Notes under the pieces: model-generated
What the model was told of the DNA's origin: nothing
Databases searched by the model: none
What the model saw: only the letters and a program-made list of their open reading frames with translations
Position numbers and translations under genes: made by a program
Part shown: in pieces, positions 4,964 through 64,000 of the stretch
How the letters are laid out: each line of letters begins with the position of its first letter
How positions within the stretch are numbered: the first letter of the stretch is position 1
Source: Laetmonice hystrix
Lineage: Eukaryota
NCBI GenBank assembly: GCA_965235115.1
Contig: OZ249436.1
Span: 35,404,001 to 35,468,000, forward strand
Reading direction: 5' to 3'
Length of the DNA stretch: 64,000 bases

Positions 4964-6845
4964 CACGGCATATACGGCTGAACATATAGGGACCTGACAC
5001 GGGGACTGACCACAAACACAGGACGAAACCAACCGGAAAGGCCTCCTCTCATGTTACGTCTGCTTTACATGCATTATAAAACTATTTCAAAATAAAATGT
5101 TTAATGAAATAAAGAGAGTTCATTGTTTTTAACGTAGAAGGGGGATGTTTTCTCCACATGAAGAATGATACTAATTTTTGTAAGGGCATGTCCCTTTGAA
5201 CAGTATGGACAAAGAGTGTATACTGATTCTGCTTGGTCATGTAATGTCATGAATGTATGTGGTTTATAATTATAACCCGGTTATGAGGTAATTAATGCTT
5301 TGTCCGGTATGTCCACATTTTCAGGGGATTTTTTTGTGTGATTATTATTATTATAGGCCTACATTGGTTCAGTGCGGATCTAAAGACAATGTCGAAGCGA
5401 TGCTGATACGGAAACGGAACAGGCGCTTTGTAATTTAAATTATTGCCGATGTAAGCATCCGTGCGTCAGCTCTCCGGTGTCTTACTATACAGGATGCTAT
5501 ACGACAGGCCATATAATCATGCTGAGCGTAGCGAGGGTAAAATTTCTTTTAGGTGGGCCCCCCTTATCAAAATCCTGACTCCTCCACTGCCTTAACTCCA
5601 TCAGCAGCATAGCTATCTTTGCTGCTTCCATCTCATTCTTGATCTGCACGTAGAAGAAGTCTATAAGATTAACTGAAAATGAAGTGTCATCCTGCTTATA
5701 CTTTCATAAACCTCCTATAGGCCTATATAGGTGGTTTGCATGACAAGTCGAGAAATGACTTGTTTTTCCCTCACCCTGTGCAATGACTGGGTGACTCGGT
5801 GAGGTTATGCACCTTCACCGTGACCGACGAGACCCGGTGCGTGCGTGTGGCCCTGTGGTATGCGCCGTGTCGGCACGGCATGGATGGTCAGCGGGTGTGA
5901 GCTTACAGCGCTTGAGGTGAGCGGGTTAGGCCTGGAATGAGGAACCATCACGGGTCGGCAGGATGTATATAGGTAGCTGCAGGTTTCCGGACTGCATTGT
6001 GTAATGATATCAAAACGTCACGGATGTTCAATAGCTAGGCCGACAGAAGACCGGATTGATGTTAAGTATATTCGCGCTATAGACCTATAGGCCTACTAGG
6101 CCTCTACATGTGGTATATTGCGGGTATATTTTAGGAAGTTCCCTAAAAGTTTTACAATAACCTGACGGTAAAGCTAGGGGAACGCAATTCCAGCGACGGG
6201 TGGAGTTCGACAGCGCTTCTTTTTTTGGTCGGGAGTGCGCCCGGTGCAAGTGAGTTAAATGCATACTAGTATACCACCTCCTATACGAATCAGAGTAGAA
6301 ATAGAACATATATATGCTGTCTTGTACCAAATCATACCTAATATCTTTTTTTCTGAAATAACCATAACAAATGATTATTGACCTTTATTGACGTGCGAGG
6401 AAAAACGGATTGAAGCTCGCCATGGATGACGTATAAAAATTATAAGGACTTGCTTACTTTGGTGCTAATCCGCACTTTCACAAATTTTACCTCTATAGGT
6501 GTAAGCTGTCAGGGATGAAATAGAGTTTTGTGAAGCGTGTTAGCCTCAGCTGGTGTACTGAGTGACAGCAGTCAGAGCTGGACGGACCTATTGCGGGAGT
6601 ACGGACAGCGGGTAACACCTTGTTAAAGCCGTCAAAACGTATCGGTCTCATCTCGGGACGTTTTCTGACCCTTCTTGTACCATGTGTTGAAACGTATTGG
6701 ATTCATTCAGAGGTCTAGATGTGTGAAGAGGAGATTCCATTCCAGGAGATTTGAGAAAATAGAAACTACCTCAAGGATGGACGGGTGCACATCTTCATGA
6801 AGTGATCGCATGTTCTCGCCTTGGTCTCAACAAAAGCATCGAGCC

Positions 6846-10640: not shown

Positions 10641-11075
10641 CATGTACCGGCACATGTTGTCGGCGAACCTGGCAAAAATTTAATTAATGCTACTTCAGAC
10701 TGATGGATAGGGGATATTATTCCACTGAACCTGGATGTGTTAGGATAGACAAACACCCAACGTTTTATAAGCATTTATGTGTTGTGAAGGAAATAATGCA
10801 AAGAAAGGTTACCCCGGTACTCACCTGCTCATGTGAAAATACAAACAAAACACTTATGTTTCTGCTAAGTTTACTCCATAAAAGCTTATTCTCCCTACCT
10901 TTTTTTTTAAAGGGTAGTGGTCATTTAATATTGCACATAACCGTCACAGCCTTACAACTTCACAAACATTTTTGATATTCTTTAATAATGCTGATAAATT
11001 TAAACGGAATGGTCACAAAATCCAATCCGGTGATGAGATTGTTTGCTTGTCAGAATACCAGCAGTCCCAAACCAG

Positions 11076-11790
11076 CCATTCTGGCGGTCCGAAATCACCC
11101 ATTCTGACAGTCTGAACCACCCATTCTGACAGTCTGAACCACCCATTTTGACAGTCTGAACCGCCCAACCACTCATTCTGACAAACTGCACCACCCATTC
11201 TGACAAACTGCACCACTCATTCTGACAAACTGCACTACCCATTCTGACAAACTGCACCACCCATTCTGGCAATCCGCCCCACCCATTCTGACAAACTGCA
11301 CCACCCATTCTGGCAATTCGCCCCACCCATTCTGGCAATCTGCACCACCCATTCTGACAGTCTAAACCGCCCAACCACTCATTCTGACAAACTGCACCAC
11401 CCATTCTGGCAATCTGCACCACCGATTCTGACAATCTGCCCCACCCATTCTGACAATCTGCCCCACCCATTCTGACAATCTGCCCCACCCATTCTGACAA
11501 ACTGCACCACCCATTCTGGCAATCTGCACCACCCATTCTGACAAACTGCACCACCCATTCTGACAAACTGCACCACCCATTCAAACAAATTGCACCACCC
11601 ATTCTAACAAACTGCACCACCCATTCTGACAATCTGCCCCACCCATTCTAACAAACTGCACCACCCATTCTGACAATCTGCACCACCCATTCTGACAACC
11701 TGCGAACCACACATTCAGACAGTCTGAACCAGCACCCATTTGGACAGTCTGCACCAACTATTCCGACAGTCTGAACCACTAATTCTGGCA
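11076..11790. repeat. 22-bp minisatellite, about 30 copies
   Basis: Unit CCATTCTGACAAACTGCACCAC with variants; starts about 13 nt past the WDR41 stop codon. Confidence 0.95.
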
Positions 11791-14800: not shown

Positions 14801-16031
14801 ATACTCTATTTCTTTTATCCAAAATTGATTCCATTTCAACAAATGCAAACTGATATGTAAACATGTGTGACATCTATCTAAGCAATTTTGTTGAAGTGAG
14901 TAGAGGGAAATGACAGTACCACATTCTTACCTCTATGTCCCACACAACAAACAGACAGTCATCCCGTACCACATTCTTACCTCTATGTCCCACACAACGA
15001 CCAGACAGTCATCCCGTACCACATTCTTACCTCTCTGTCCCACACAATGACCAGACAGTCATTTCGTACCACATTCTTACCTCTATGTCCCACACAACGA
15101 CCAGACAGTCATCCCGTACCACATTCTTACCTCTATGTCCCACACAAGGACCAGACAGTCATCTCGTACCACATTCTTACCTCTATGTCCCACACAACGA
15201 CCAGACAGTCATCCCGTACCACATTCTTACCTCTATGTCCCACACAATGACCAGACAGTCATCCCGTACCACATTCTTACCTCTATGTCCCACACAAGGA
15301 CCAGACAGTCATCTCGTACCACATTCTTACCTCTATGTCCCACACAACGACCAGACAGTCATCTCCTGCCGAGGCACACCTGAACAATTGACGACATGTC
15401 TACTTCATCATTTTTGGATAGCATGTACCAACTGATTAGCTTCTAAATGTCAAGGCTACAATATTTAACAATTACTTAGATACAAGATCTATAACAAGGT
15501 TATACTGTTCCCAAGAAAATCTCCTGTCTGCTGAATATTCTTTAATGAAAACATTTAAAGGGGAATTTTTTATAGCAAACAAAATAATAGCCAAGGTTAA
15601 CCTATTGAGACTTTCAATGCTTACTTGGTAGAGCTGACCTGGATGAGGAGGCGGACAATGTCGCTGTGGTGGGACAGTATTTGAACCTCAGTGAAGGGGT
15701 TCTCTGGCTGGTTTTCTTTGACTTGAACAACATCATTCTGTCATAACCATCAATGCAGAACAGAGTAAACTTAGCTAAATTAATAAATTGATAAAATAGG
15801 TATATATTAAACTTTAAAAGATCAGAAGCAACTTCAGAGCTATCTTTTGAGACTGTCATATATTTAAGGTTAAGTCTTACGTTAAATGAGTATACACATA
15901 TTTGTAAGTACATGCACATGATGCAGAGTATCATGTACTGCATTTACATGTACTGGGCTTTTTATGTTAAAAAGTTTACCCACCTCTGAGGTATCATCTC
16001 TTCGTTTACGACTCCTTGAACTTCTTCTCAT
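11803..16031 (-). CDS. WDR41: WD40-repeat protein 41 (C9orf72-SMCR8 complex subunit) orthologue
   Basis: Exons in transcript order: 16031-15984 (tentative start), 15737-15625 (QPENPFTEVQILSHHSDIVRLL), 15379-15331 (CASAGDDCLVVVWDIE), 14579-~14436, 14236-14174, 13848-~13737, 13567-13505, 13399-13286, 13180-13026, 12796-12672, 12480-12322 (LASCSEDGSIRLW), 12204-12117 (LLGECLAHSGAVQ), 11952-11803 (FVSCGLDGLLILWKDG...*). Motifs are colinear with human WDR41 as recalled (NPYTE..L..HHDIVR, ASAGDD, SCSEDGSVRIW, LIILWKNG). Confidence 0.9.
14916..15365 (-). repeat. 50-bp tandem array (9 copies) spanning a WDR41 exon/intron donor junction
   Basis: Minus-strand unit GAGATGACTGTCTGGTCGTTGTGTGGGACATAGAG|GTAAGAATGTGGTAC = 35 nt exon + 15 nt intron; copies every 50 bp from 14921 to 15321. 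Confidence 0.95.
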
Positions 16032-25848: not shown

Positions 25849-28800
25849 TTATACTCTCTTGTGCCAGGTTTTGCTTGTGATGTTTCGCACTCTTGCTGTC
25901 TGTAATATTTAGAAGAAAAAAATACTGAAATAATCTTAGAAAACTTGTGACTTCTCCCAATTAATATTTTAGGTTCTTTGAAATGGGGGTGGATGGTAGG
26001 TTAACTTTAGAGAAATATATAAATATGGTATCCGATGTGTGGACGTGCTTCTTTTTTTTACCCGAAGTGTTGTGTCAGTCTTTATAACATGGTACCGGTC
26101 AATAGTCTGCCCACTGGCTGACCGCAAGAGAACAAGACCACAGTGTCTCCATTCAGGCCAAGCTGACACTATGCTGAAGCCTCCGTTTTCTTTTAAGCTG
26201 TTATGTTCAGTGACTTTTTAAGGAGGTACTTAACTTCATTCTAAATGAGGAAGGAAAGAAGTGTTATGAGGAATTGGTGATTCACTATACCCACCACCAC
26301 AAGCTGATTGCCGATAACTTCTCGGGTCATCTGTGCATCGAGGTGAGGATCATCCTTGTCACGATGCAACTCCACAAACTTGCCATCCTCAACGTTCACC
26401 TTACTCTGAAACATGAGAAACATTCAGACTGGTAATGATGGCAACTGGGCACATTCAGACTGGTAATGACAACCATCAGACACATTCAGACTGGTAATGA
26501 CAACCATCAGACACATTCAGACTGGTAATGATAACCATCAGACACATTCAGACTGGTAATGACAACCATCAGACACATTCAGACTGGTAATGAATGTAAA
26601 ACACCTTTAGACACATTTAGTGGTGATGACCATCAGACACATTCAGACTGGTAATGAATGTAAGACACTTTTAGACACATTTAGTGGTGATGACCATCAG
26701 ACAGATTCAGACTGGTAATGATAACCATCAGACACATTCAGACTGGTAATAAATGTAAGACACTTTTAGACACATTTAGTGGTGATGACCATCAGACACA
26801 TTCAGACTGGTAATGATGGCTGTCAGACATTCAGACTAGTAATGACTTTTAGACACATTTAAACACATTCAGATTGGTAATGATGACTTTCAATCACATC
26901 CATACCGGGATTGATGACCGTCAGGCACATTCAAACTGGGAAAGAAGACCGTCAGAAATGTACTGGTGATGATGACCATCAGTCACATTCAGACTGGTAT
27001 TGATGACAATCAGACACATTCACACTGGTAATAACTTTTAGACACATTTATACACAATCAGACTGGTGATGATGATCATCAGTCACATTCAGACTGGTTA
27101 TTCAAACAGGCGATTCCAAGGGATAGGTCTACTTCAAAGATTCTTCAGACAGACACTGAGCTGTGACTAAGCGGTGATAGTATGTAGGCCATCTTGGTAC
27201 GTGTAGTCGTAACAGTACTTAGCAAATGTTAGTTTTTTAAAGGCTACAAGATAGGAATGATTCACCGTTGAAATGGGGAATCGCCTATGCAATGAGCACT
27301 CAGACACCCAGGTTCAAGTTTTATGGTCACACAAAACAAAACACAATACAAAACAGAAAGTGTAAAGTTGGCAGTGCACTCAAATGAATATAAAGTCTCA
27401 ACAGTTTAAGGCGTTTCAGTACCATCGCCGTTTCGGCACTTCAACAAGTGATACTGTTCACTGACATCTTGTATGACTTAAAAACGTTTGCAAAGTTCCA
27501 TGTTTTTACAAGATTTTAGCTGTTTGAATCACTAATCTATGATATTCGTTGTCTGATCAGTTTTGTGGCAAAGCTCTAGGGAAGAGGGCGCCGTGATCCC
27601 ATCGAAGCAAACAAAACTTTCTGCACTTTCTAAGTACAGCTGTGGGTAGTATGTACAAATGGTAATTTTAATCAGGGTTTCTTCTCTTTGGCACAAAGTT
27701 GGCAATAAGAAATCCAGTAGCAAGTAACTGACATGCATACAAGTTTAAAGAAGCCAGGTATAGATCTTTCTATTTTACAAAGGGCCGAGAAAGCGGGAAA
27801 TGGTCCTACCTTGATTGGTCTGCCATCCAGTGTGTAAGAGTCAAATTCCTTGCCAATGGTGTAATTGAAAGTTCGGCTCATACCGTTGGGCATATACACT
27901 GTGTAGGTCCATTTGTCACCGTCACGCATATACTCCATTGTAAAATGCATGTCAGAGTACATCTGCCGCTTCTCTTCCTCCATGTCTGCCAAAGAAGCAA
28001 AGGTTACAGTTAGTAGGAGACCAAAGAATAATCATCCTGTGTTGCATAATGCATCGGTAAAGTCTCAATAATATGAAAATGTTAGATGTTATTTTGAGCA
28101 TAAAGGTCTACACAGGGCCGTACTCGGTCAAATACGGCTAGGGGCCATATGTAGAACATAAATTTCAATCAATTTGTCAAAAAGGGTGTTTTTCCTCCTT
28201 GTCAAAAAGGGTACTTTTCCCAGATACCAAGCGACTGCAATGACAAATTCCTAAGACACTCGTTTAGATACGCTTAGTGAGAAACATTAGCAGTGGTTAG
28301 ATGGACACCAACCAGTGTTGTGTTATGATTTGGCCATCCCAAGCCGATCCACACTTTTAGTAAGTGTACGTGGGCCCAGATGCTGGAAGGCCGGTGACAG
28401 GACGAACTTCGATGAAGACCGTCACTGGGTGAACGTGGATCATATCAAACAGCAGCCATGGCTGTCATATCGCTTTTACTTGATTGCCCATCACATTTGA
28501 TTTAGCCACACCGGGTCGTTGCCCTTATAAAACTAGACAGGAGTCTGGTGCAGTCTATTAACATGGCTAGAGATTGGAGATCCACTCAAACAAATTGTAA
28601 GTAGCAATCCCATACTATGGCATAGTGTCGGGTATAGGGTCGTATTTGATGGAATTAAAAGTTTGCTTTCAGTTCAAAACTTTGATGAGAAACCAATCCA
28701 ATATCCAGTATCCAATATCATAACCTGTTCTCGTGCGAGGAGGAAATGCTAGTTATGTGTACTGAGTTGCAAGGGGTTTGGAGTCGAGGTCATTTCCCCA

Positions 28801-42962: not shown

Positions 42963-43275
42963 AAGTATGAACGTGATCAGGTAATATGGAAACTGAAGAC
43001 TGTCGTCTTGAAAATACATGAAAACTCGGACAGACGTTGAGCCTTTAGATCAGCCTATAAACGACGGGTTGATGTAGTGTAGAGCATTGTAAAGGTGTGA
43101 CCATTTCATAACTGAAGGTTTCCCTCAATGCTATCTTTGTATGCTGACACCTTCCATGTATCTCACCATATATCAAAGACATTTTATATGATAGAATCTC
43201 TTTAATTTTTTTTTTACATATTTTTTTTACTCGTTTTGTTTCCCATGTAAAACAATGCCATGATGATGTTGACAG

Positions 43276-46085
43276 AGGCGATAATCCAGATGGACCCCTG
43301 CCGACCGAGATGAGGTTTGACCGTTACAAGTTCACCTTCCCCCGGCGTGGCCGTGCCATCATCATCAACAACCATACCTTTGACCGGAGACTTACCGGCC
43401 AGCAGGACCGCGACGGCACTGACGTGGACGCTGCCGCCTTGGAGAATGTTTTCATGGCGCTGAACTTCGAAGTGACTCGGTATGATAACCTGACGACACT
43501 CGACATGTCCATGAACATGAGGGCAGGTATGGTGTTCAACTGGTATAGGTCTAGTGGGAAAGGTTGATTTACTTAAAGATGTATTTACCTGGCGATAGCA
43601 ATATCCCAGGTTTCGATCAGAAATGCATGAATAAACAATAACAACAACATCGAATTTTTGTGTGGTTAATTTCGTGCTAAGACTTAAGTTCAGATGAAGA
43701 GGTGATCGTCTACAATTTAATTGTGGATGTGTTAATGTTTCAGTGGCAACCGAAGACCACAGTGATGCAGACTGTTTTGCGTGTGCCATTCTCAGCCATG
43801 GAGAGATGGGGGAAGTTTATGGCACCAATGGCAAGATAAAGATTGATAACATCACCAAAAATTTCAAGGCAGATGTCTGCCCTACGCTAGCAGGAAAGCC
43901 TAAACTCTTCTTTATTCAGGTTTGTATAAAAGAATCGTTTGACAAATCATATATTTTTTTTTACCAAACATGAAGTTGTGATCTTTGGAGATATTTACAC
44001 TTATTTTAAATGTCATTATTTCATGGAAAACTAGACTGCCTTTAGAGGACTCAGAAATCGTTTCTGTGTCCCTACTGTAGGCTTGTGTTGTAGCTTTGAC
44101 TGGGGTGCCACTGGGGTGTCGTGGGAGGAGGTTTGACTGGGGTGCCACCGTGGCCAGTAGAGCAGACCGTCCCTGTTTCCCTGTTGTAGGCGTGTCGTGG
44201 TAGGAGGTTTGACTGGGGTGCCACCGTGGCCAGTAGATCAGACCGCCCATGTTTCCCTGTTGTAGGCGTGTCGTGGTAGGAGGTTTGACTGGGGTGCCAC
44301 CGTGGCCAGTAGATCAGACTGTCCCTGTTTCCCTGTTGTAGGCGTGTCGTGGTAGGAGGTTTGACTGGGGTGCCACCGTGGCCAGTAGATCAGACCGTCC
44401 CTGTTTCCCTGTTGTAGGCGTGTCGTGGTAGGAGGTTTGACGTGGGGTGCCACCGTGGTCAGTAGATCAGACTGTCCCTGTTTCCCTGTTGTAGGCATGT
44501 CGTGGTAGGAGGTTTGACTGGGGTGCCACCGTGACCAGTAGATCAGACCGTCCCTGTTTCCCTGTTGTAGGCGTGTCGTGGTAGGAGGTTTGACTGGGGT
44601 GCCACCGTGGCCAGTAGATCAGACCGTCCCTGTTTCCCTGTTGTAGGCCTGTCGTGGTAGGAGGTTTGACTGGGGTGCCACCGTGGCCAGTAGATCAGAC
44701 CGTCCCTGTTTCCCTGTTGTAGGCGTGTCGTGGTAGGAGGTTTGACTGGGGTGCCACCGTGGCCAGTAGATCAGACCGTCCCTGTTTCCCTGTTGTAGGC
44801 GTTTTGTGGTAGGAGGTTTGCCTGGGGTGCCACCGTGGCCAGTAGATCAGACTGTCCCTGTTTCCCTGTTGTAGGCCTGTCGTGGTAGGAGGTTTGACTG
44901 GGGTGCCACCGTGGCCAGTAGATCAGACTGTCCCTGTTTCCCTGTTGTAGGCCTGTCGTGGTAGGAGGTTTGACTGGGGTGCCACCGTGGCCAGTAGATC
45001 AGACCGTCCCTGTTTCCCGGTTGTAGGCGTGTCGTGGTAGGAGGTTTGACTGGGGTGCCACCATGGCCAGTAGATCAGACCGTCCCTGTTTCCCGGTTGT
45101 AGGCGTGTCGTGGTAGGAGGTTTGACTGGGGTGCCACCATGGCCAGTAGATCAGACCGTCCCTGTTTCCCTGTTGTAGGCCTGTCGTGGTAGGAGGTTTG
45201 ACTGGGGTGCCACCGTGGCCAGTAGATCAGACCGTCCCTGTTTCCCTGTTGTAGGCCTGTCGTGGTAGGAGGTTTGACTGGGGTGCCACCGTGGCCAGTA
45301 GATCAGACTGTCCCTGTTTCCCTGTTGTAGGCGTGTCGTGGTAGGAGGTTTGACTGGGGTGCCACCGTGGCCAGTAGATCAGACCGTCCCTGTTTCCCTG
45401 TTGTAGGCGTGTCGTGGTAGGAGGTTTGACTGGGGTGCCACCGTGGCCAGTAGATCAGACCGTCCCTGTTTCCCTGTTGTAGGCGTGTCGTGGTAGGAGG
45501 TTTGACTGGGGTGCCACCGTGACCAGTAGATCAGACCGTCCCTGTTTCCCTGTTGTAGGCGTGTCGTGGTAGGAGGTTTGACTGGGGTGCCACCGTCGCA
45601 GACGGAGTTGAGGACGAGACTGATGCCGGATCTATTGATGACCAGTCCATTCGAAGAATCCCGGTGGAAGCAGACTACCTCGTGGCCTACTCTGTCGTGC
45701 CAGGTAAATATTTGTCATAATATGCTCGTCCGAAGTATTTTCAGTATTCTAATAAACTGAATAGCTTCACACATACATGTATAATGTGATTGAATTTCGA
45801 AGATTTAAATGAGTCAATGATGTAGTTTTAACATTGTAACTGCCGGTAGGTTACTTCTCTTGGCGTAACAACGTGGACGGGTCGTGGTTCGTTCAGGCTA
45901 TCTGCCGGGTTCTCCGCGAACATGGCCACACGGAGGAACTGATGAGGATGATGACCCTCATCAATAAAGTGGTCGCCTACGACTTCGAGTCGTGCACCGA
46001 TGACGACTTCACTAGCAAAATGAAACAGGTGCCATGCATGGTGTCTACTCTCACTAAGGAAGTGTTTTTCACACCAAAATATTGA
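43276..46085 (+). CDS. Effector caspase (caspase-3/7-like); N-terminus unresolved
   Basis: Exons ~43276-43526 (RGRAIIINN, RDGTDVDA), 43744-43919 (CAILSHG catalytic His; LAGKPKLFFIQ), 45559-45703 (ACRG completing QACRG; linker EDETD/A; IPVEADYLVAYS), 45850-46085 (GYFSWRN, GSWFVQ, KQVPCMVSTLTKEVFF*). Phases consistent. Confidence 0.93.
44050..45596 (+). repeat. 76-bp tandem array spanning the caspase intron/exon acceptor junction
   Basis: Unit GCGTGTCGTGGTAGGAGGTTTGACTGGGGTGCCACCGTGGCCAGTAGATCAGACCGTCCCTGTTTCCCTGTTGTAG. Acceptor AGs end at 44189, 44265 ... 45482, 45558 (19 copies) plus a degenerate copy at 44080. Confidence 0.97.
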
Positions 46086-50490: not shown

Positions 50491-51149
50491 ATTTCATGGG
50501 TAATTGGATCATGTAATAACGGCGCACAGACAGATCCCACGAGTAGCTCTGCACAATCACGTACCTGACTGGTATTTGTGTTAAAGATAATACTTGTTTG
50601 TGTTGCATCTTTTGGACGGCTGCGGTTTAACAGCAGGCCCTATACATAATCTCCAAGCAACAATATAATATGTAAGACTGACTTTATTTTGGCACAATGC
50701 ATTTTGAGACACGCTGTATGCCCCGGGATACATGTATGATCCTATTGGGCTCATTGGCAAATCGTGGAGCTTAATAAGCCTTCCCGAATGTATGGCCTCG
50801 AATTCAAGTCTTTGTTCGGGTTTCGTTCGTTGAATAGACCAACACCCCAAGGGTCATGGGCAGCTGGCCATTTAAAGGATAGCAGGGCGATTGTTTCTGC
50901 CGTTATTTTACAGCACTTGATCGAATACGCTAGACGGAATTTTTGGAGTCTCGCGTCAGCAGGCAAGGGAATGTTGGACTATATGGATTCGTGAAAAATG
51001 GAGTTTCCTACTAAGGTCCTCCTTCGTAAAGAAAGGATCACTTCCTCTGAAAGACTGACGTGACGTGAGAATGTCGGCCTAATTCAAGTGGTATTTCATT
51101 CATTAACTTTACTCGTTAAGGTGTATGGGTGCATGAATACATCTAAACA

Positions 51150-54100
51150 ATGCCGTCTGGAGTGACCATTTCCCATGGTGTATTCGTCACCGACAGGACT
51201 CTGAGAGAAGGTTCACGGCTGACCTATGCGGGTTCTGGCATTGGTCAGCCGCCGGCGAGGCAGTGGGACGGAATGACACCCATTGACGAAGTATGTAGAA
51301 ATTATTCCATCAGACGACCCGCCAGGGCAGACGTCCGCCCTGGCCGTGAGGTTTGTGGCGGGCGTGGACAGGAGGACAGGGGCAATACGGGACAGAGGAC
51401 AGAGGGGATGCCACGCCCACCGGCTCAGGCAATCCAAGGGTGTCAGAAGGCTACCAATGACAATGGACACCTGGTAGATGTTTCTTATGCTTACCAAGAT
51501 ATGCCAGGGTTGTTCCAAAGACGACGGAAGTCTTCAATGGACTTGTTTCAAACGAATCCTACGACTGTTAACCGCTTGTTGGAAACAAACAATAATGTGC
51601 AACCTGACGGAAGAATGTCTAGTCGGGAGAATGTTTCGATTCCATGCCAATCGACGGATACAAGAGTTTCTGATGACAAGCTGAAGTATCTGGTCAATAG
51701 TTACAATCGGTCTGTCTCCATGGAAGCTTTTCAGATCACAGTCTCTGAAAAGGTAAGACACTTGAGTGGTAGAACACTGTTTTATCTATCGTATAGCGCA
51801 TTTAGGCCTATTCATACAGCCCCGGTGGTTGTTTCCTTCACAAGAGCTAAGTCGTACACAATTTGACTCATGATCTAGACCAGTCCTATACTTTGAGAAT
51901 GGAGGGAATGTCATTAATTCTGATGAAGCCTGGGCCCGGTTTTTTTGTTTACTTTTCCACTGTGAGCAAGGGTGAGCTGAGCCGAGCAAGGGTGAGCGTG
52001 AGCTCATTCTGACCGTTTTCTTGGGTTACTTTTTTCCATGAGGCGTGCTCATGATGAGCAAGCTCGCAGAAAAACACCCCAAAAAACGAAAACTGTGAGC
52101 AAAACGGTGAGCATGAGCTTCTGCTCACACTTGCTCAGCTCAGCTCACCCTTGCTCACGGTGGAAAAGTAAACAAAAAACCGGGCGCGTTGAGAAGTTCT
52201 CTCTTGCCGCTGTTGGCATTAGTACGGGATATATGCTTTATGGCAGGGGGTAAAAGTAGATAGGATTTAAAGTTACCTGTACAGATTTACTGAACTCAAT
52301 ATGTGAACGTTGTATGTTATATCCAGAGCCAAGGCTGTGAATTCCACGGAGCCCTGCGGTTTTACATGGAGTCGGGTGGACAGCAGGTGACCAAGGCGAT
52401 CAGGCTGAGCAGTACGACCACAGTGAGGGACGTCCTGCCGCTGCTCGCCGAGAAGTTTAACCTTACTCGCCTCATGTCAGCTGAACAAGACCCAAGTCAG
52501 GTCATTGGGATTGTTCAGAGGAGGCGAGGAGGCGGTCAGTACCTAGTACTCTTCCTGCTGAAAGGGGGGGGGGTGTCACCGAGCCGGACTAAATGAATGA
52601 TATAAATAAACAAATAATTAGATAAGTAAATAAATGAGTCAATAGTCAATGAGCCATTTCGGCATCTAAGGTGAAGTCGGTGCAGCCAACATACAGCTTG
52701 TGAACCCCGTCAGACCTTATTGGAAGCACCGTACGAGCGTACTGACCAATCACAGTCCGTTTAGGTCTGGAAGTGGTCACTGGGAGGATTTGGCTTCAAC
52801 AAATAATGGTCCAATGGCAACCCTTATCTGACTAAAGTAACCCTCACTCTAAGTCGAGCTCTAGGACCAGTGCTAGGCCTACAGTGGTTACCCCTCCTAA
52901 GTTCAGAAGGACGGATTCCGCGTTTAAAGACCGTCTTCCTATAGTGAAACGAAGTTGACCTGGATCTATTGATGGATTTCTGGCGAACTTATAGTTTTCA
53001 TTGATGTCTAGCTCAGGATACGGCAGGATTTTCAGCATTACGTGCACTTCATGGCGGCAAAGTATAGGTAACTGTGGGAGAAAACTAAAGCGTGATATTT
53101 ATCATCATACCTGTATTTATTTCTCAGAGGGTCCGTTTAAATTAATATTTTGTTAATAATATCGTTAATTTACAAAAGATTAGAAAGTTATCCGTTTGGT
53201 ATCCTGTTCAGACAATGATATTTCAACGTCTGCAATACCATTATGCTCTATTCCATCATTTTTGCGGTTTTTGAAATTTTAAAATTTGACCTCAATTATG
53301 CCTTTGTATAACAGACTTTCCGTGCTTCCTGAGACACTTCCAGCCAAGACTGCGGTGGCCAGTGCATGGAATGTATTTCCATGAGGATATATAGGTCCAG
53401 ACCCCAGGTACCAGTGAGGGCGGTCAGGGTGAAATCTGGGCTGGAAGGATAATACGCTTATTGTTGGCAGCAATAATTGATCGACTGCAGCCTAGATAAT
53501 CCCCGCTCAGTGTAAATAAATGGGGTGGCTTGGCATCCACAGGCATTCCCCCAATAGGACCATTCTCAAGTGCTGGTACTGAACCAAGTCCTGTATTTTC
53601 TATAGGAGTTATCTAGACTCCTATATTTATATAAGTTGTGTAACTCTCAATCGTTATTCGCATTTTAGAGGATGTACCACTAGCCGAAAACGACAGGCCA
53701 CTGGCATTGGCGTTGAACTGCCGGAGTCGACCGCGCTTTGTACTTCGGATTGTTGAGCCAGCAGCATACCACGACCAGCCAAACACATCTCACTCGGATG
53801 CCGTTCAGTGTGACAATGCTGTGTTACAACAGGAATCCGTGATAAATGACTTTGGTGAGGGCTGTAATCAATGGAAGGCATCTGGGGAGGACAAGCAATC
53901 ATTGGCAGCGGCGACCTTCAATCGCCAGAGTCGGGCTCGCTCTGTGAAACAAAGAAAATCTTACAAGGTTGAGGACCACCAGGGAACCCACTTAGAAGAG
54001 GTTGCGCCTCCTGGTGGGGAGCAAGGGTTGGCGCGTCCGGTAACGGGACGCAGGAGACGTCGCGAGAGGTGGCCACGTGACACGAGTCTCGACAGGATAT

Positions 54101-57100
54101 CCACGAGGGGTAGCGTGCCGTTAACAACCCTGCTGCCGAAAACATTTAGTTTTCGTCACAAAGGGGATAAACATCGACGTGACATGACCGAGCTATCCAC
54201 CGAGGAAACCTCTCCTGGGCTGCTGAAGATTTTCGGGGATTCCATAAGTCCAGGAGCCCAGTATAAGAGCGTCCTTGCAACGCGTTCCTCGACGGCACAA
54301 GAACTAGTGAAGGAGGCATTAGAAAGATACAACATTCGCAGGAAACTCGCGCCAGAGTACGTGCTCTGTGAGGTTGTGGGAAGACTCGCTTTATCAGGGA
54401 ATCATGTTGAGGAAGAAGAACCCAGAAAGAGATCGCACCAGAACAAGGCGACATGGATGTGGGTTGAGGAATGCATGCGGGTTGTAGGCGACCATGAGCG
54501 CCCGCTAACCCTGCAGTCGTTCTGGAAGCCATCCGGACAGTACAGCCGACGGTTTGAACTAAGGCGTCGATCAACCATCGACTCTGACGTCGACACCATC
54601 ACTTCCGGGATCAACGCAAACGCCAGAAAACTCCTTATATCAAAAACAAAACTGGAAATCAATACGCAAAACGAGGCACCGGACTGCGAAAGTGTTGACG
54701 ATACTGATTTCAACGAAGCCTGCCCCAGGAGTGGCCAAACACCTTTATTGACATCTGACATAGAACCACAAGTCGATCTTGCATATCTCCCAAAGCCACA
54801 AACCCACTCTCCAGGTCAGCAGGGGATGAAGGCCCCTACATCAGAACCATATTTCCTCACTCTGAGGGGTTTTAACAGTGCGTATGATGATCTTGTTTAT
54901 ATCATCAATGAAAGGGTGACGATTGTAGGGAATCCAACCGGACAGTCCAAACGAAGCCGCATATGTCTGCAAGCTCCGGATGTTTTACCCGAGCACTGTT
55001 GGCTGACCAAGATGGCCGAACTATCTGAGGATAACAACAATCGAACTCAAACTGTAATAAGTCTTGATCCTTTACCTAATGCCCCAATCTGGATTAACAG
55101 CGTCAGTATAAGTACAACCGCAACACTGAAACACGGGGATATAGTTCACCTGGGGCATCATTATGTGTTTCTTTTCAAGGATCCGATGTGTGACGATCTT
55201 GACCTGACGTCTATAAAGCGCCTTAACGTTCGACAGCCTGATCAAGGGACCTGTCCCAAATCCACTGTCAGCCAAGGCAAATTCTCACTTTCCCATTCAG
55301 GGGACAAACATGACTTAAACCCAACCGGTCTTAACTCAGGTTTTACCACAGAAAAACAGGAGGATCTCTTGAAGCATATAATGAAAATAGTAGATTTATA
55401 TCCGAACTTTGGTAAATTAACGCCTGCCTACATGCTGTCTTCGTGTGTGGTCCAGGCCTATACAGGAAACAACCACGAACGGCTGGCGGGTCTGGTGGCT
55501 AGGATGATGACGATGCTCCAGGATATCGTCTGGGTACGTGTATGCTCATTTTCTTTCCGATTCTGGGATCATATTCCTTTAGTTTGGGGAACAATTCATT
55601 TTTTTCAACAGAATATTTATCATTTATTTGCGTTTTTTTAGGATTCGACTAAGAAGTTAGCAGACAGACAAGCAGACAGGTGGGTTGTCTTATGTGTAAC
55701 TGAGACTGTTTACAATGAAACGATGCCTTCGCAATTGTAGGCCTATATTTAGGGTCTATTGTCTCATAGCCTTTCAAGCTCGCTGGTAAGGGTCTGTTTC
55801 GATGTTAGTTATATTTTGTTATGACTTCTTCTATTTAGGGTTGAAATATTATAGTTACACGTAGTTTTACGGGGCACCACATCATGAACGAATTGCACAG
55901 TTATTACTACATTCTTTGTAGGTTGACGACAGCATTTTCTTTCTGATATTGTCAGATATTGCTAACATTGATGTGTTATTTCACAGACCAAGTGCTAGCC
56001 TTGACGAGGTACTTCCAGACCTGAAGCCTGTCATTCTGTGGCTATCCAACTCGGTCGAACTCCTTGGCTTCCTTCGTGATGACACGAACGCGTTCTATGA
56101 CGTGATAGAGACGCCGAACAAAGACGGGGACGACACTGAGTCTGACGTCCTCATTCTCGAGGATGTCGTGATTTATACATTTCAACAGACGGTGTACTAC
56201 ATAACAAAGGTAGGCCTACTGCGACTATCAATGACGTATACAGGAACGGGGGTTCCAAAAAATTGGTCTGGGGGGGCAAATTTCCCTGTTATCATGTTAT
56301 AATATTGCCAGGGCAAGTTAGGGGGGGTGATTCCAGGATACTTGGAACCCCCCCTGGATACACCACTGAATATGGAATCTGAAAGTTCATTTTTATATGG
56401 TTGTATTGCGTAATAATGAATACAAAATACAGTTACAATCTGAGGTATAGATTTTCCATCCAATAAAGCCCACACTACCTTAGTCTCAGGTCTAGGTGAA
56501 CGTAACGATAGCCTACTGCCAAAGTAACGTTGCCCACTTTCTGCAGACGCTGTACTCTGTCCTCTCGGCCATTTTGGACTGTAACCCATTCCACACTGAC
56601 GAGGTGCCGACTGTCAGTGGTCCAGGGCCCACAGTGGAGACATTGTTGTCGATCCTACAAACAACTCTGACAGTGATGAGGGAACACCTTCTCCACACAC
56701 ACGTCCTCTCCCAACTCTTCTGCTACCTCTTCTTCTTCACAAGCACGTCACTCGTCAACATGCTCATGGACAAAGGTAGGTAGGGTTGTTCAGGTAACAT
56801 TTAGGGTTGTTGTAGAGCGATTGCCCATTAACTGTTCCCGCCTAATTGTGGCACCGTTTGGACAAACAAGCGGCTTAAATTGTAGTAAAAAGAGAATTGT
56901 TTAGATTCACAAAAAGTCCTTTTTATGTAATAAGTCTATCCCATATAATATTATGTTAACAACGTGGTGCTATAGTATAGGCCTATATAATGGACATCAA
57001 TTATCGTTCTTGCTGTCCTGCCAGGTAGTGGAAGCAAATATTATCGATGGTCTCGTGGGGTCCACATCCGTGGGAACCTGGACGCCGTCGAGAGCTGGGC

Positions 57101-60100
57101 GGTTGTGTCGGGGCTGGGCACGGAGGCGTCGCTCCACCTGGGGCGGATTAACAGCCTGGCCAACCTGCTGGCCACGCCCAGATTACAGCTACTGACGGTA
57201 GGAACATTAGGACTACCTCGGGTCACACATATACAACAACCCAGGGGGGTGCGTTTCAATATAGCCCAAAGATATCTTTAAAAACCTCGCTGGAGCCATG
57301 TGCGAGGTTTTTATTGAAACACTCGCTCCCCCCCCCATCCATTTTGATTAAATCACGCGAATTAATGTCTCCATCCCCTACCCCCCCCCCCCCCCACCCG
57401 ACCCCCCACCCCAAAAAACTATATTTGAAATTATTTATGTAGGCAGACTGGAATGGCCTAAGAAGAAGTCACCCCGGAGTACGTGCGGAACACCTTCTGA
57501 AGGTTCTCAGAGAATACGAGTTGGGCCCCGGTCAGGACCGGCCGGAGGCGTGGGAACCACCACCTGGCGATCTTGACCTGGAGACGTGGACTGAGCGTCT
57601 CACAGACAACTTCAGAGACCACCCTCCGCTCCAGTTCCCAGACAACGGCTTTTCACGTGATCACCTCGGCCGACACCATGTACAGCATCCGCCCTGGTGT
57701 GAACTAGTTGATCGCATCTCCGACACCTTCCCCGACCCCGACAGTAAGAGAAACTACGCTCACTTTTCGGCGTTGTGTCCAAAACCTAAATTTCTTTATC
57801 TTAAAAAAATCATTAAAACCCCAAAGGACCCCCCCCCCCTCCTGAAATAGCTTCTGTAAGACCCATATTACCAGGGCTTTGAAGTCAAAAGCAATAACCC
57901 CCATTGTTAAATCTACTGTGGGTCATATTTGCGTACCGTACTGCACGAAATAACATTTGTTATTCATTTAAAATTCGTTTGTCAGAATCCGCTAGTGGTC
58001 GTGAACAAGCACCGATTGCTGCCCGGCCTGTGGCACCAAAGAGAAGAAGTCGGGAGGAGAAACGCCAGGCGGCGCTGCTGAACCAAGAGACCAGAGTGTC
58101 AGGCTCAGGTCGGGATCCGTTCGATCAGAAGGTGCTGGCACGGTACAAGGAAGGAGACCTTGGGGACAGCGGTATCAGTCTGTCCGGTGATAAACTGCTG
58201 TCCGGGGATAAACTGCTGTCCGGGGATAAACTGTTGTCCGGGGACAAACTGCTGTCCGGAGATAAACACGACACCAAGGACAAAGATACCAGTCAACCGT
58301 GTCGCTCTCACACAGACATCAGACCAGCTTGGCAAGCGATTGATCACTCTAAGATTGCCGCTCACAATGGCGGACAAAGAATGACGGCGACTTTTGGAGA
58401 GGAAGCCGTGACCGATGGCCATTCCAAGTCGTGGATATCTAAGGGAAATAAGTTAAGTTTTAATGGACAGGGCAGGCATATCGATACCGACCCCTATGGG
58501 ATTGAACCAGTTTATGTCAATGCTCCGTTTAGACCAAATTGTTGCCTACAAGAGGTAAGAGACCTAAAGGACACTACGTGCAGCAATGACGTCACCCCGG
58601 TGGCTCCTCTGGCCATGTCATCACCTCTGACGTCAGACAGTAGCACACCATGTCCGTCACCCACTGACGATATACTCATACCGCCTCAGCCGAAAATACC
58701 CGCACCGGTTCTTGAACGATCGTCAATAAAAAGACGAAGCAACAAGTCAGCGCGAAAAATCCAACATGCTGTCATAGAAGAAATCGATGCTGCTGATGGC
58801 ACTGAAACCACGTCCCGTACGTTCGCTGGGAATGAGGCTAAGATCGTTGTGGTCAACCAACTAAGACAGCCACCAGGTGGTGTTGTGAATGGTCTGTGTG
58901 TTCGTCCTTTAAGCTCCGACAACGAAAGACGATATAGTTTTGACAAAGGTTAGTTCTTTCCCTTGTTCTTACTGTGCTGATTTTGAACCGGCCAGCGATC
59001 TTTTCTTCTAGTCTGGAAAGTCGAAAATTGCCTTCTATTGGAACTTTCATCTTTTTATACCATGGTCACACATGGATACATAAAATCAGTTGTGGCCGGG
59101 AATAGGAATTCATGTGCACCATAATTCATGACTACATATTCCGTATTACTATTGTGTTCTAAAGAAGCTCTCAAACATTCTCTTTTTTTCAAAAACGGAT
59201 GCCCGTCCACAGGAGTAGATTTGAGGGAGGAGTGCGACTGTTCCGACCTGCCACGGTCCCAGAATGGACACGTTGTTCCAGGAGCTAACACTGATGAAGA
59301 TGATCCAGATGATATGTTTCTCATCAACTTGGAGAAAGGATCCCGGGGGTTGGGTCTTGGGCTCATCGATGGAATGGTGAGTTATCGAAGCAGGTCTCTG
59401 GGGCCCGTCTCACTAAAGGCTGGTTAATAACCAGATCGTTAAGTTAACATAGGAGTGAATGGAAGGCTGCTGGTTACTGTAACCAGCAGCCTTCCATTCA
59501 CTCCTATGTTAACTTAACGATCTGGTTATTAACCAGCCTTTAGTGAGACGGGCCCCAGGTCTGTTAACGTTTCCGGGTCATCAACGAAATGATCCCCTCG
59601 ATTACCGAAACGACTCCCTACTCCAGCCCTTCCAGTCAAACCTTTATAATCTTTATAACCCTTTATTTTTGTGGGCTTCCCGTATCTACTTTATTTTGAT
59701 CCAAATAGCCTTTATAACCTTTTTTAGCATGATGAGTGTGAAGTGTGGGTGGACTGAACAAAATGCAGTAGGCACCCTATAACAAAATTATAAATATAAC
59801 AGTATTGGAGGTAAGTGACTTCACGTGAATGATAAATGGCTGCAAAATCACACACTAAGGAAATACATGAGCTTTTGACTCTATACTTCACACTGAAATG
59901 CTCTATATGTTTGAAATCATAAACTTTATAAAAACCTTTCTGTCTCTATCCACTGGGAGGGCTGCTACTCTCATGCCGAATCGATCTCTAGGGACCCAAT
60001 TTTAGCTCATGCAGTTGTATGTTCGCGTTCATGTTATATTCCTACGTTCATGAAGATTCACGTCTTCCATGCCATTTCTGTTTGCAGTACACAACATTAC

Positions 60101-60416
60101 GGCGCCCTGGGATCTACGTGCGGACGTTGGTGCCATCCGAGCCGGCGGCGACGGACGGACGATTTCAGCTTGGAGACCGTATCCTAGCCGTCAACGGACA
60201 GAGTGTCGTGGGCGCCGACTACCAAAGGTAACAGTTAATAATGAAAACGGCATCACATCAGGTGTTCTCGTACGGTCTTGTGTCATGGCGCTTCATGTTG
60301 GTTTTTCTTCTTGCAGCGCGATGACAATTATCCGGGACGGCGGGAAGATACTACAGTTTCTAGTCGCCAAAGGGAACCGAACGATTACCATGCAGATCAC
60401 GTCGTCTACTTGCTGA
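51150..60416 (+). CDS. RADIL: Ras-associating and dilute domain protein (RA-RA-FHA-DIL-PDZ)
   Basis: Exons 51150-51752 (tentative start), 52327-52534, 53669-55533 (PGLLKIFGD...YKSVLAT...ELVKEALERY; DVDTITSGINANARKL; FHA LQAPDVLPEHCW...LKHGDIVHLGHHYVFLFKDP), 55642-55679, 55987-56209 (WLSNSVELL; YTFQQTVYYITK), 56547-56775 (SQLFCYLFFF), ~57025-57197, 57443-57742, 57986-58948, 59213-59376 (LEKGSRGLGLGLIDGM), 60088-60227 (DGRFQLGDRILAVNG), 60317-60416 (FLVAK...*). PDZ at the extreme C-terminus favours RADIL over afadin. Confidence 0.88.
51934..52185. mobile_element. MITE with long (~60 bp) imperfect TIRs in RADIL intron 1
   Basis: GCCCGGTTTTTTGTTTACTTTTCCACTGTGAGCAAGGGTGAGCTGAGC ... GCTCAGCTCACCCTTGCTCACGGTGGAAAAGTAAACAAAAAACCGGGC. 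Confidence 0.85.
58180..58266 (+). repeat. Coding 18-bp tandem repeat (LSGDKL x5) in RADIL
   Basis: CTGTCCGGGGATAAACTG repeated in frame within exon 57986-58948. Confidence 0.9.
59398..59558. mobile_element. 161-bp perfect palindrome (foldback MITE) in a RADIL intron
   Basis: 80-bp arms around a single base at 59478; ends CTGGGGCCCGTCTCAC ... GTGAGACGGGCCCCAG resemble the element at 21954. Confidence 0.9.
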
Positions 60417-60956: not shown

Positions 60957-62758
60957 TTACTTGGAATAACCGTTACCATTACTCTTATACCATCGTGAAA
61001 GACACAGAAGGGTAATGAAGTCAACTATTTCACACACTGTCAGTACACTGGCGCCGAGAAGGAGTCCAAGGAAGCCTCCGACTTCCGAAAGCAAACTAAC
61101 ACTTGTGAACGAAACCTGCTGGGTGATCTTTTCGAAGCTCAACTCCGGGTAGTAGAGATCCATGGCTATGATATTATTCCTATAAAACAGAATACAAGTC
61201 TTATTGAATAGTGAAACAAAATAGAATATAAGCTGGGTGTTAAAGATTAGGCCTATAAACGGCGATAGTGGTTGTGTTTTTACGTGCATGCAGATACAAA
61301 CAGGTGCGAACTTTTTCTAACCGCTGTTGGCACATTTTCTGGATCAGGACCTCAGTCTGTTTAGCGTATACCCAATCAAACTATCCCACCCCTATTGTAT
61401 AGGTAATTATTGTTCCATGATGGAAACTTACAGAAAGAACGTGGCCGACATTTCGTTCCCTTTCAGATACGTATTCAGATTTTTCTGACATATTTCCACT
61501 CTTTCAACTAAATCTTCGAGATTCTTCTGCACCTCCACGCGTGCCGTCTCCATGATGGAAGCGAGTGGATATAGAGTTTTCTGAACAATCTCTGGAAGGT
61601 TCGACTGGGTGCCGTTTTGGATGTCCGTTAGTAGGTTTTCAATATCTGGAGAAGTCGCATTTCGGACCGATTCGATAAGAGGAAGGCGTTGGATGGAGTT
61701 CTTATCGAGGAGTGGCACAAGGAGGTCGAGAATGGATGTATACCACCGTTTCATGCCTCCCTCGATATCGTTTATATTCTCCACGATCGACTTGCAAGAT
61801 GACCGAAAGTCATAAACACGGGAGTTCATGTCGGATAAGAAGCTTTGAATGACCAGGGCGTTAAAACTTTCAGCCAGGGACTTCTTGGTGATTTCACCAT
61901 CCAGGTAGGAGGATAGCTTTGTAAACACTGGTACGGCCCGTTTACTGAGCACCTCGCTAATGGTTATCAGGTCTGTCGATAACGAGGGAAGTTTGTTTCC
62001 TATCATCAAGAGTTTGTCGTCAGCTTCCATCACCGGGCCAACGTATTTGTTCAGGTCTTGTTCTGCCTTGCTTGCCTTGGAGCCACCCGACACCCAATAT
62101 CGTTTGAACCACATGCACACAGACAAATCAATGGCTTTCAATTTCTCCAGAGATTCATAGGATTTGGAAAATTGTTCAAACACGCTATCGTGCATCGCCA
62201 ATGCCTGCCCAATGGTTTCCGAGACATGGATGCCGTCAAGATCCGTGATAATGTGTAATGGATCTAATAGTAAAGCGAGTTGTCCTAAGACATTCAAGCA
62301 GGTTTGGTGGAAATGTATAGTGGAATAGTTACTCCAGGTATCTCGATAAAGATACGCGACCGTTTTGTGGTACATGCTAGTGAATTTCTTCAGTTTTCTT
62401 GCCCCTATTTCCAGATCATGAATGGGCCTTGTTTTCATTGTGCAAATTCCGTATTTAAGGGTCTGGCATATGCTAAACTGCGGCGGGGGCGATATGGTTG
62501 GGAAGTAGTTCACGTTTGATTCAGGGGGATTTTTAGATCTTCCATCATCCATCCAACTATTATCCTCCTCTTCCTCCCCTGACGAATCGAAATCTTGACC
62601 CTCGTCCGGTCTGGGCGGCGGACGCTTGTCTCTATCACCGTACAGGTTTGGTGGACCTGTCATCGACGGCTTGTGACGCATTGCCGTCACAGGGCAGGCT
62701 TGGTCAGCTGGAATCACCACAACATGGCAGGTTTTCATTGATGTGGCGCTGGTTTGGC

Positions 62759-62799
<41 letters not shown>

Positions 62800-64000
62800 G
62801 GTGTTGTTGTGGATGTTTGAGATGTTGATTGGGATGTCGTGGGTGCTTTTGTCGTTGGGCTCACTGTAACTGGTTGCGTAGATGTCGTTGAGAGGGACGG
62901 CATTGGAGTGACAATAACCACTGGAGACGTACTGCTAATGGTTGTAGATTTGGCGCTTGTTGATTGTAAGGTACTTGACGGTAGGGGGTTATGGGTGAGC
63001 GTTGGCGCCGTACGCAGGGATGTTGTCGTGTCTCTAACTGAATAATCAATGGTTGGTGGGGCAGCCAGTGTTGTTTTATCGAGTATGTCATGTGGATGTG
63101 TTCCTGAGGTTGTTGTCACAGACGCTGGAGTAAGATATGTTGTCTGGTCGCCGGAAGGACCTGAAGCCCCGCTAGAAAGCCAATACGGGTCCATTCGGGT
63201 AGTCTCACCGACTGGGGTAAACACATGGTACGAGGTAAGGCTATCAAGAGTATCTCCTGAACTGTCGTAGTCGGTGGAGATCCAAGAGTCACCACTCCAC
63301 GCTCCAGAAGTGTCCCATGACATATCGGACATGACGTCACTATCAGGGTACGCACTGGTAGGTATATGTGACAGGGTGTCACTTGTCACCCAAGAACTTC
63401 CCTGACTGGTTTCCCCTGGAACTTGACGTTTATAGCGTTGATGACTCTCTGGTGGTCCCTCCATATTTTCTGGTGTTCCATTTAGTGGTCCTTCTGGTGT
63501 TCCATGCGGTGGTCCCTCTGGTCGTCCATCTAGTGGTCCCTGATCTGGTGGTCCATGCGGTGGTCCCTCTGGTGGTCCATCGTGTCGTCTATCTGGTGGT
63601 CCATCTGGTCGGCCGTCCGATGGCCTCCGTCTAGGATGACCATGTGGAGGGTGATTGTGGTCCAATCCGTCGTGGCCCCTATGGTAGTCGGCACCACGGT
63701 CGGGATCCCCATGGTAGTCGGCACCACGGTCGGGATACCCATGGTAGTCGGCGCCACGGTCGGGATCCCCATGGTAGTCGGCGCCATCGCCGGGGCTGCC
63801 GTGGCCGTGACCGCCGTGACCGGCACCGCCGTGGTCGTGGCCGGGACCGCCGTGGCCGGGACCGCCGTGGTCGTGGCCGGGACCGCCGTGGCCGGGACCG
63901 TCGTGGCCGTGGTCCCCATGGCCGTGGTCCCCATGGCCGTGATCGTTGGGCGGCGGTGAAAGGAAACGTTTCATGTCGGAATCGTCACACATGCCCATAG
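60957..64000 (-). CDS. DEG/ENaC (ASIC-family) sodium channel, last two exons; 5' part outside window
   Basis: Last exon 61179-60957: NNIIAMDLYYPELSFEKITQQVSFTSVSLLSEVGGFLGLLLGASVLTVCEIVDF (pre-TM2 strands, TM2, GAS filter). The upstream open exon (>64000-61432) joins in phase (CT|GTAAGT ... TAG|G gives Leu). Confidence 0.88.
62761..62810 (-). repeat. Coding (ACA)n microsatellite encoding poly-Thr
   Basis: (GTT)13 on the + strand inside the 856-aa ORF. Confidence 0.9.
63681..63786 (-). repeat. Coding 30-bp repeat (GADYHGDPDR x4)
   Basis: ATGGTAGTCGGC recurs at 63681, 63711, 63741 and 63771 on the + strand. Confidence 0.9.

Follow-up and report, generated by a model that had tools for sequence, protein, structure and literature searches.

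The closest described counterparts of the array reported here are the mirage minisatellites of amphioxus, known from Adh3, the globin genes BflGb6 and BflGb9, troponin C and PGBD5 (PMC3087553, PMC3902484). The BflGb6 array lies on the acceptor side of its intron, has been found with 3 and 6 units, is unstable in length and carries diverged copies at its edges; as the cited part of that report puts it, RT-PCR suggests regular splicing (PMC3087553). The Adh and troponin C mirages are stated, in the cited part of the second report, to yield no aberrant mRNA (PMC3902484).

Human genes provide further cases. In CBS, both the insertion c.844_845ins68 and the 31-bp VNTR c.1444_1467+7(16_21) are described with use of the exon-adjacent site (PMC2630376). 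The 37-bp VNTR in intron 7 of F7 contains five to nine identical donors, which are functional, and only the first of them is used. Structure did not account for this choice, and 5′-to-3′ scanning to the first site was proposed; the discussion of the same paper describes experiments with duplicated splice sites as having given conflicting results (PMC1557585). Among caspases, the truncated form caspase-2S depends on a dedicated 61-bp alternative exon and has its own promoter (PMC2490756). In the literature searched, made up of main texts lying largely outside subscription journals, no caspase gene has been described with such an array.

Caspase gene and the intron B array

The window is the whole stretch of 64,000 nucleotides of the Laetmonice hystrix assembly that was analysed (C1:35,404,001–35,468,000), and positions are counted from its first letter. 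On its + strand it carries a caspase gene with four recognised exons, A to D. Exon A (43276–43526, +) encodes the start of the large subunit (Pfam PF00656, E = 7.6e-11); its 5′ edge was inferred from the AG at 43274–43275 and its 3′ edge was taken from a spliced contig of sequencing run X4. The same joint, present in one contig at a depth of 5.8, defines intron A (43527–43743, +; 217 nt, GT..AG). Exon B (43744–43919, +; PF00656, E = 2.1e-16) contains the catalytic His (SHG) and the sequence ...KPKLFFIQ, and ends on the Q of the QACRG motif. Intron B (43920–45558, +; 1639 nt, phase 0) begins with the GT donor at 43920 and splits the motif as Q|ACRG. Exon C (45559–45703, +; 145 nt, donor at 45704) encodes ACRG with the catalytic Cys, an acidic linker and the start of the small subunit. 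By itself it falls under the Pfam cut-off (PF00656, E = 0.007), and it was aligned to caspase-7 and caspase-3 chains over amino acids 1–48 and 4–48. After intron C (45704–45849, +; 146 nt), the last coding exon, D (45850–46085, +; PF00656, E = 4e-15; stop at 46083–46085), encodes the small subunit with the SWR motif. Its best match among solved structures is the caspase-7 small subunit (E = 7e-22 over 74 aa). An upstream 5′ exon, where the prodomain would be expected, which in an effector caspase is short and has no CARD or DED, and a start codon were looked for and not located.

Homologues of exon B are caspase-3/7-like, with 55–76% identity among the 120 listed of 236. The named ones among the matches listed come from molluscs, an annelid, amphioxus and insects and have similar identities. 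The predicted caspase has both the catalytic His (SHG) and QACRG, and the gene is predicted to be an intact effector caspase of the caspase-3/7-like type, with a small subunit nearest to those of caspase-7 and caspase-3. The Q|ACRG intron split is also present in paralogues on C13, C4, C11, C3, C7 and C1, the one on C13 being close (69% in exon B). In all of these, where readable, an array at the Q|ACRG acceptor is absent.

At the present locus, head-to-tail duplication and expansion of a 76-nt segment over the edge of intron B and exon C has produced 19 copies, next to which lies an older diverged one. A preliminary description of this DNA had held that the intron splitting Q|ACRG measures 1.6 kb and is nearly all a 76-bp array; indeed, the array occupies about 88% of the 1639 nt, and ~161 nt are left once it is subtracted. 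Tandem Repeats Finder reports a period of 76, 19.5 copies and 97% matches over 44116–45596 (+). In all 19 clean copies the unit consists of 38 nt of intron end, including the AG, and 38 nt of exon start. The 19 clean acceptors have exon starts from 44190 to 45559, lying 76 nt apart with one spacing of 77. Eighteen of them (exon starts 44190–45483) are decoys, the number given in the preliminary description, which had overlooked a diverged 20th acceptor. This 5′-most copy of the intron/exon edge (44045–44111, +) was recognised by pairwise alignment with the unit and by translation; its AG is at 44079–44080 and its exon start, 44081, lies 161 nt from the donor. The frame-preserving acceptor (AG at 45557–45558) belongs to the last unit, whose intron part spans 45521–45558 (+) in the variant table.

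Neighbouring units share variants, and the edge copy is diverged. The inside of the array appears to show concerted evolution, which the 5′ edge copy does not. All 20 matches of the 76-bp unit in the 627-Mb assembly (35 contigs; the counts are lower bounds) are at the caspase locus, and the unit was therefore rejected as a dispersed element.

Contigs from four runs (X1–X4) of one sample, possibly the assembly's own source, were compared over 43000–44265. The repeat collapses to a 106-nt contig in X1–X3, with depths of 457, 377 and 366 versus 36–64 in single-copy flanks. This corresponds to a ratio of 6.7–10.4× in three DNA-type runs of one sample, the value expected if the assembled array is on both haplotypes being 10.4×. 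Contigs in X1 and X3 run from the unit into the unique exon C sequence, and both array edges are present in contigs. The raised depth and the contigs reaching exon C indicate that the raw data contain a long array, which argues against an assembly artefact, an outcome that the preliminary description had named as refuting its claim; the exact copy number is that of the assembly, of which these runs may be the source. The shared 38 nt of exon start are longer than the 31-letter words of the contigs, which for this reason would not phase the junction reliably. In X4, one spliced contig joining exons A and B (depth 5.8, ending at 43810) shows that the gene is expressed, contig depth being no measure of expression. 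No X4 contig matched 43811–44265, a gap to which no weight is given as evidence. Both exonic haplotype differences found in exons A and B (2/2), at 43432 and 43787, are synonymous.

Only the acceptor with exon start 45559 stays open through donor 45704, and the 19 others reach a premature stop; the preliminary description had said as much of the 19th clean acceptor (AG ending at 45558). Splicing to 17 of the 18 clean decoys would add 29 aa followed by TAG, and the remaining one, with a 1-nt insertion, would add 15 aa. The truncated peptide quoted earlier as typical is predicted, in exactly that sequence, for 6 of the 18. The diverged acceptor would add 40 aa before a TAG at 44201, and the decoy at 44799 is without the catalytic Cys codon. 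As had been suggested, translation from the upstream acceptors predicts a large subunit without the small subunit. NMD is expected of a transcript whose stop lies more than 50–55 nt before the last junction. The upstream stops sit 131–1500 nt ahead of it, so the earlier expectation of NMD for decoy-spliced transcripts is borne out by their positions.

Over −20 to −1, 15 of the 18 clean decoys do not differ from the real site, and locally the acceptors are as equal as had been claimed. This does not extend to the whole unit, identity falling to 9/18 over −20 to +3 and to 1/18 over −38 to +38. The first exon codon in the 18 clean decoys is GCG in 12, GCC in 5 and GCA in 1. The decoy copies carry missense and synonymous changes, a frameshifting insertion and, in one copy, loss of the Cys codon; there was no sign of hidden selection on decoy codons, missense changes and the insertion occurring beside synonymous ones. 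The units were also rejected as in-frame micro-exons, since their internal GT sites give 10- or 17-nt frameshifting pieces. A 36-nt in-frame micro-exon would depend on a very weak donor and was rejected as well.

Comparable arrays in the genome

Locus-specific minisatellites arise at high density in this genome, and real donors or acceptors lie within many of them. We found 54 arrays (period of at least 20, at least 2.5 copies) in 400 kb and listed 44 in 322 kb surrounding genes of other families, some of the latter double-counted in overlapping loci. Thirteen further arrays have a real splice site in the terminal copy, six on the acceptor side and seven on the donor side, with exon edges placed by homology and reading frame. 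Six of the thirteen are spread over 4 of the 14 further caspase loci. These are a donor array (38 bp, about 30 copies) and an acceptor array (70 bp, 22.7 copies) on C7, a donor array on C13 (37 bp, 6.4 copies), a donor array (86 bp, 6 copies) and an acceptor array (88 bp, 2.5 copies) on C4, and an acceptor array on C3 (52 bp, 5 copies). The other seven are in non-caspase genes: a donor array of WDR41 in the same window (50 bp, 9 copies), an acceptor array of a DEG/ENaC channel gene just downstream (45 bp, 9 copies) and splice-site arrays in four AMP-binding-domain genes and one kinase gene. The exon-derived part measures only 3–8 nt in some arrays. The other acceptor arrays, at least six, have about 2.5–23 copies with an exon-derived part of a few to about 65 nt.

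The preliminary description had suggested that acceptor choice and copy number could tune the dose of active caspase. A dose control specific to this caspase is not supported, because arrays also occupy splice sites, both donors and acceptors, in other caspases and in unrelated genes, the same architecture being present in WDR41, DEG/ENaC, the four AMP-binding genes and the kinase.

Pfam was run on 145 flank frames of 47 arrays, that is, the 54 minus seven caspase-linked ones, and gave two convincing matches in a test that misses short exons. One was the DEG/ENaC acceptor array and the other an in-frame repeat ahead of ankyrin repeats. In the non-caspase sample, 14 of the 44 arrays, picked for splice-like motifs or closeness to exons, were examined by eye; five are clearly on a splice site, one is unclear (L166) and eight are off. 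The Sugar_tr loci are mostly single long exons and hence uninformative.

In seven caspase paralogues, arrays were on splice sites in 6 of 12 cases versus 1.9 expected (P = 0.003) under a crude null with hand-read intron lengths, in which array-free genes and one in-exon array were excluded and the C29 array was counted as lying off a splice site. Arrays may be enriched at splice sites; pure random placement does not explain the 6/12 under this rough null.

Choice among the acceptors

We consider it likely that the array is a mirage minisatellite, a product of genome-wide repeat instability that is tolerated via exon definition and NMD and has little effect on caspase output. It is a head-to-tail array whose unit runs across an exon–intron boundary, it is locus-specific, and the real site is in its terminal copy. 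With the amphioxus mirages, as far as the cited parts of those reports describe them, it shares head-to-tail copies of an intron/exon boundary, occurrence in several genes of one genome and edge copies that escape homogenisation (PMC3087553, PMC3902484). Like BflGb6 it is acceptor-side, comprising an intron 3′ end and the 5′ part of an exon; unlike BflGb6, with its 3–6 units, it has 19 + 1 copies of a 76-nt unit, in a different animal, and unlike the amphioxus mirages it holds a catalytic residue in the copied exon part. Splicing was judged by RT-PCR in amphioxus, whereas acceptor use in the caspase gene is read from the sequence. The CBS variants, as described in the part cited, differ in that there is a single additional copy in the acceptor-side case, the case with many copies lies on the donor side and the setting is that of long mammalian introns (PMC2630376). 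The F7 repeat likewise consists of tandem identical splice sites, but on the donor side (PMC1557585). Scanning at an acceptor array would choose the wrong copy, so the mechanism proposed for F7 is not directly transferable. With these precedents, the earlier suggestion that splice-site choice can be studied at this locus as a test case is sound, although not new.

Slippage or unequal crossing-over would have driven the expansion, as the variants shared by neighbouring units and the 5′ edge copy that escaped homogenisation suggest. A head-to-tail duplication of a boundary always leaves one site adjoining the complete exon, which here is the last acceptor. The majority of transcripts would be spliced to this acceptor, since no other defines a short exon with donor 45704 and since it adjoins unique purine-rich exon sequence. 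The exon would be 145 nt long from the last acceptor and 221, 297, 373 and so on up to 1623 nt from the next ones; five GAA/GAG triplets are present at +39 to +101 after the real site versus one after the nearest decoy. In the minority spliced to a decoy, the stop would precede the last junction by a long distance, and NMD would clear these transcripts. Under exon definition and NMD clearance, the array would be a tolerated and probably length-variable by-product. The simplest account of the catalytic motif inside the duplicated piece is chance, a frequent mutational process having happened to hit this spot.

The gene structure also provides counterpoints to this explanation. Introns A and C, on either side of intron B, are short, at 217 and 146 nt, and before the expansion intron B itself would have measured ~161 nt. 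In short introns, splice sites are paired across the intron. Together with the order of transcription, this would favour the first acceptors, against the tolerated-mirage explanation. In addition, 18–19 competitors exceed the acceptor-side precedents in the cited parts of the reports (3 and 6 units in the amphioxus globin, 1 in CBS). The excess of arrays on splice sites over the rough null (6/12 versus 1.9) also counts against it, as does predicted folding, in which the last acceptor is no more open than the decoys.

Two further candidates for the selection of the last acceptor were examined. In predicted folding this acceptor is 0.37–0.53 unpaired versus 0.33–0.74 for the clean decoys, the diverged first acceptor being the only one with lower values throughout (0.18–0.26). 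Since local folding (37 and 20 °C, spans of 80 and 150) does not favour the last acceptor, RNA structure was rejected as the main selector. The real site might also have an improved branch point, since G>A at −37 gives TGAC there, but the change is present in 2 of 19 copies, being shared with one decoy only (44571). It may be due to chance or be the ancestral state and is a weak lead only.

Alternatively, acceptor choice could be leaky, with each unit diverting transcripts to decay, so that the copy number would act as a dose dial, either passive or selected. We regard this as rather unlikely. The identity of 15/18 decoys to the real site at −20 to −1 and the premature stops that all decoys give are consistent with it, and the short-intron context would favour upstream sites. 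Human tandem repeats are, according to the cited part of one study, associated with splicing variation genome-wide (PMC10078293), and the depth ratios, mostly below 10.4×, would also fit a second allele whose array is shorter or more varied. As in a poison isoform, an alternative acceptor would introduce a stop well ahead of the last junction; the array would thus have the stop codons of regulated unproductive splicing but, among the paralogues compared, not its conservation. Against a dial, many unrelated genes carry the same architecture, the mirage precedents, in the parts cited, report no aberrant mRNA (PMC3087553, PMC3902484), and one sample is the basis for copy number and expression.

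Decoy use could also be rescued by re-splicing, if the joint of exon B with a decoy recreated a GC-type donor (CAG|GCGTGT) from which the spliceosome ratcheted on to the real exon; the real exon's own strong donor would then win. Twelve of the 18 clean decoys start with GCG. In a paralogue on C1, a GC donor of similar weakness seems to be required for the frame to be kept, which suggests that GC donors may work in this animal. The same junction motif is present in the C13 and C3 paralogues, which have no array at this intron, and this argues that the motif is no adaptation. GC donors normally require a near-perfect consensus, and the donor regenerated at a recursive-splicing ratchet point is canonical AG|GT, whereas the one predicted at the decoy joint is GC-type. 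We regard re-splicing as very unlikely. That the upstream acceptors are really used at all, with the 19 copies acting as a decay dial or a GC-donor ratchet in a short-intron invertebrate, appears unlikely to us.

It is still less probable that the array largely silences the gene, the upstream acceptors winning, most of the mRNA decaying and paralogues covering the function. The pairing of splice sites across short introns would fit this, as would the single spliced contig at a depth of 5.8, which is no expression measure, and the close C13 paralogue with its 69% in exon B. However, the catalytic motifs, the linker and the small subunit are intact, the two exonic haplotype differences are both synonymous, and the older diverged copy implies that the duplication has persisted for a while and that the coding sequence has not decayed meanwhile.

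A stable protein consisting of the large subunit only and acting as a dominant negative, in the manner of caspase-2S, is highly improbable. The predicted product does retain His and Cys without the small subunit, and caspase-2S, termed pro-survival in the cited part of its report, also comes from a premature stop that removes the C-terminal part of a caspase (PMC2490756), although here such a product is predicted only and its stop would stem from repeat copies and not from an alternative exon. The stops at least 131 nt ahead of the last junction speak against stability, the tail differs among copies and one copy is without the Cys; moreover, a title cited in the same report says that caspase-2S mRNA is extremely short-lived (PMC2490756). 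Finally, an assembly artefact can practically be dismissed: all runs are from one sample and the depth ratios mostly fall short of 10.4×, but the repeat contig reaches 6.7–10.4× single copy in three runs, both edges are in contigs and the variants between copies are patterned.

On the best reading, the array is a member of the mirage kind already described and not a caspase-specific device. It is a clean and extreme case, with 19 near-identical acceptors before a catalytic exon. Its value is that of a test bed: scanning fits donor arrays, where the first site wins, and would misplace the choice in an acceptor array. The published acceptor-side cases, as described in the parts cited, have few copies, and here the context is one of short introns, which raises the question of how a short-intron animal would skip 19 upstream acceptors. 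The six or more other acceptor arrays of this genome could help to separate the contributions of exon definition, enhancer position and NMD. Should copy number alter caspase output, an apoptosis effector would be tuned by a mutable repeat. If the upstream acceptors did serve as a dial or ratchet, a few percent of splice sites being arrayed and apparently more of them than random placement would give, copy number would form a layer of splicing control across the whole genome, which would offer a natural panel for 3′ splice-site choice among identical copies.

Haplotype divergence upstream of the caspase gene

The haplotypes diverge strongly in the region directly 5′ of exon A, the first located caspase exon, where 18 substitutions and two indels were counted over 225 nt (window positions 43027–43260). 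One of the differences is a 4-nt insertion at 43260, near an ATG; its presence between haplotypes argues that this ATG is non-coding.

Arrays and neighboring genes in the window

The gene for WDR41, on the reverse strand, carries a donor-side array at 14916–15381, in which each unit combines 35 nt of exon end with 15 nt of intron start, and the donor is intact in all nine copies. A 22-bp array (11070–11787, reverse strand) lies a short distance past the apparent WDR41 stop codon. A diverged 31/95-bp array (26412–27098, reverse strand) occupies an intron of a gene that we take to resemble a fatty-acid-binding protein, for which no Pfam match was found. This array stops a few bases short of the acceptor, which is not clearly inside it. 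Further genes in the window were located by ORF reading. They include two tandem genes at 2314–9766 (forward strand), presumed to be chitinase-like, a forward-strand gene at 51147–60416 that is presumably RADIL-like, and, at 60957–64000 (reverse strand), the terminal part of a gene for a DEG/ENaC channel.

Arrays and splice sites in caspase paralogues

The caspase paralogue on contig C7 features two large splice-site arrays on the reverse strand (L081 4870–6475 and L082 2765–3931; here and below, L-numbers denote loci elsewhere in the genome, with local coordinates). One contains about 23 acceptors and the other about 30 donors, with AG immediately followed by GT in every copy of the donor array. 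Exon C of this paralogue encodes ASRG, whereas the other caspases have ACRG, and thus, judging by its sequence, the C7 caspase may lack the catalytic Cys.

The 62-bp array of the C29 caspase (L010 610–1051, forward strand) begins at a donor and is similar to the exon end, with GT missing from its copies; it is possibly a boundary array with inactive decoys. The C30 caspase has a 60-bp array (L017 2775–3523, forward strand), and the stop codon of this gene lies inside the first copy. A candidate GC-AG intron with weak consensus was found in the paralogue at 48.79 Mb of contig C1 (L187, about 4787, reverse strand), where the in-frame Q-to-SCRG join seems to require a GC donor. Behind the C3 caspase, there are four arrays of 21, 28, 28 and 21 bp (L188 7910–8966), which look like a mirror-image, inverted structure about 1 kb long.

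Shared motifs at array borders

Short shared motifs flank the donor arrays of the C7 and C13 caspases and of locus L165. At the acceptor array of an AMP-binding gene (L177 884–1191, reverse strand), the intron end and the exon have a direct repeat of ~10 nt in common, a likely seed for slippage.
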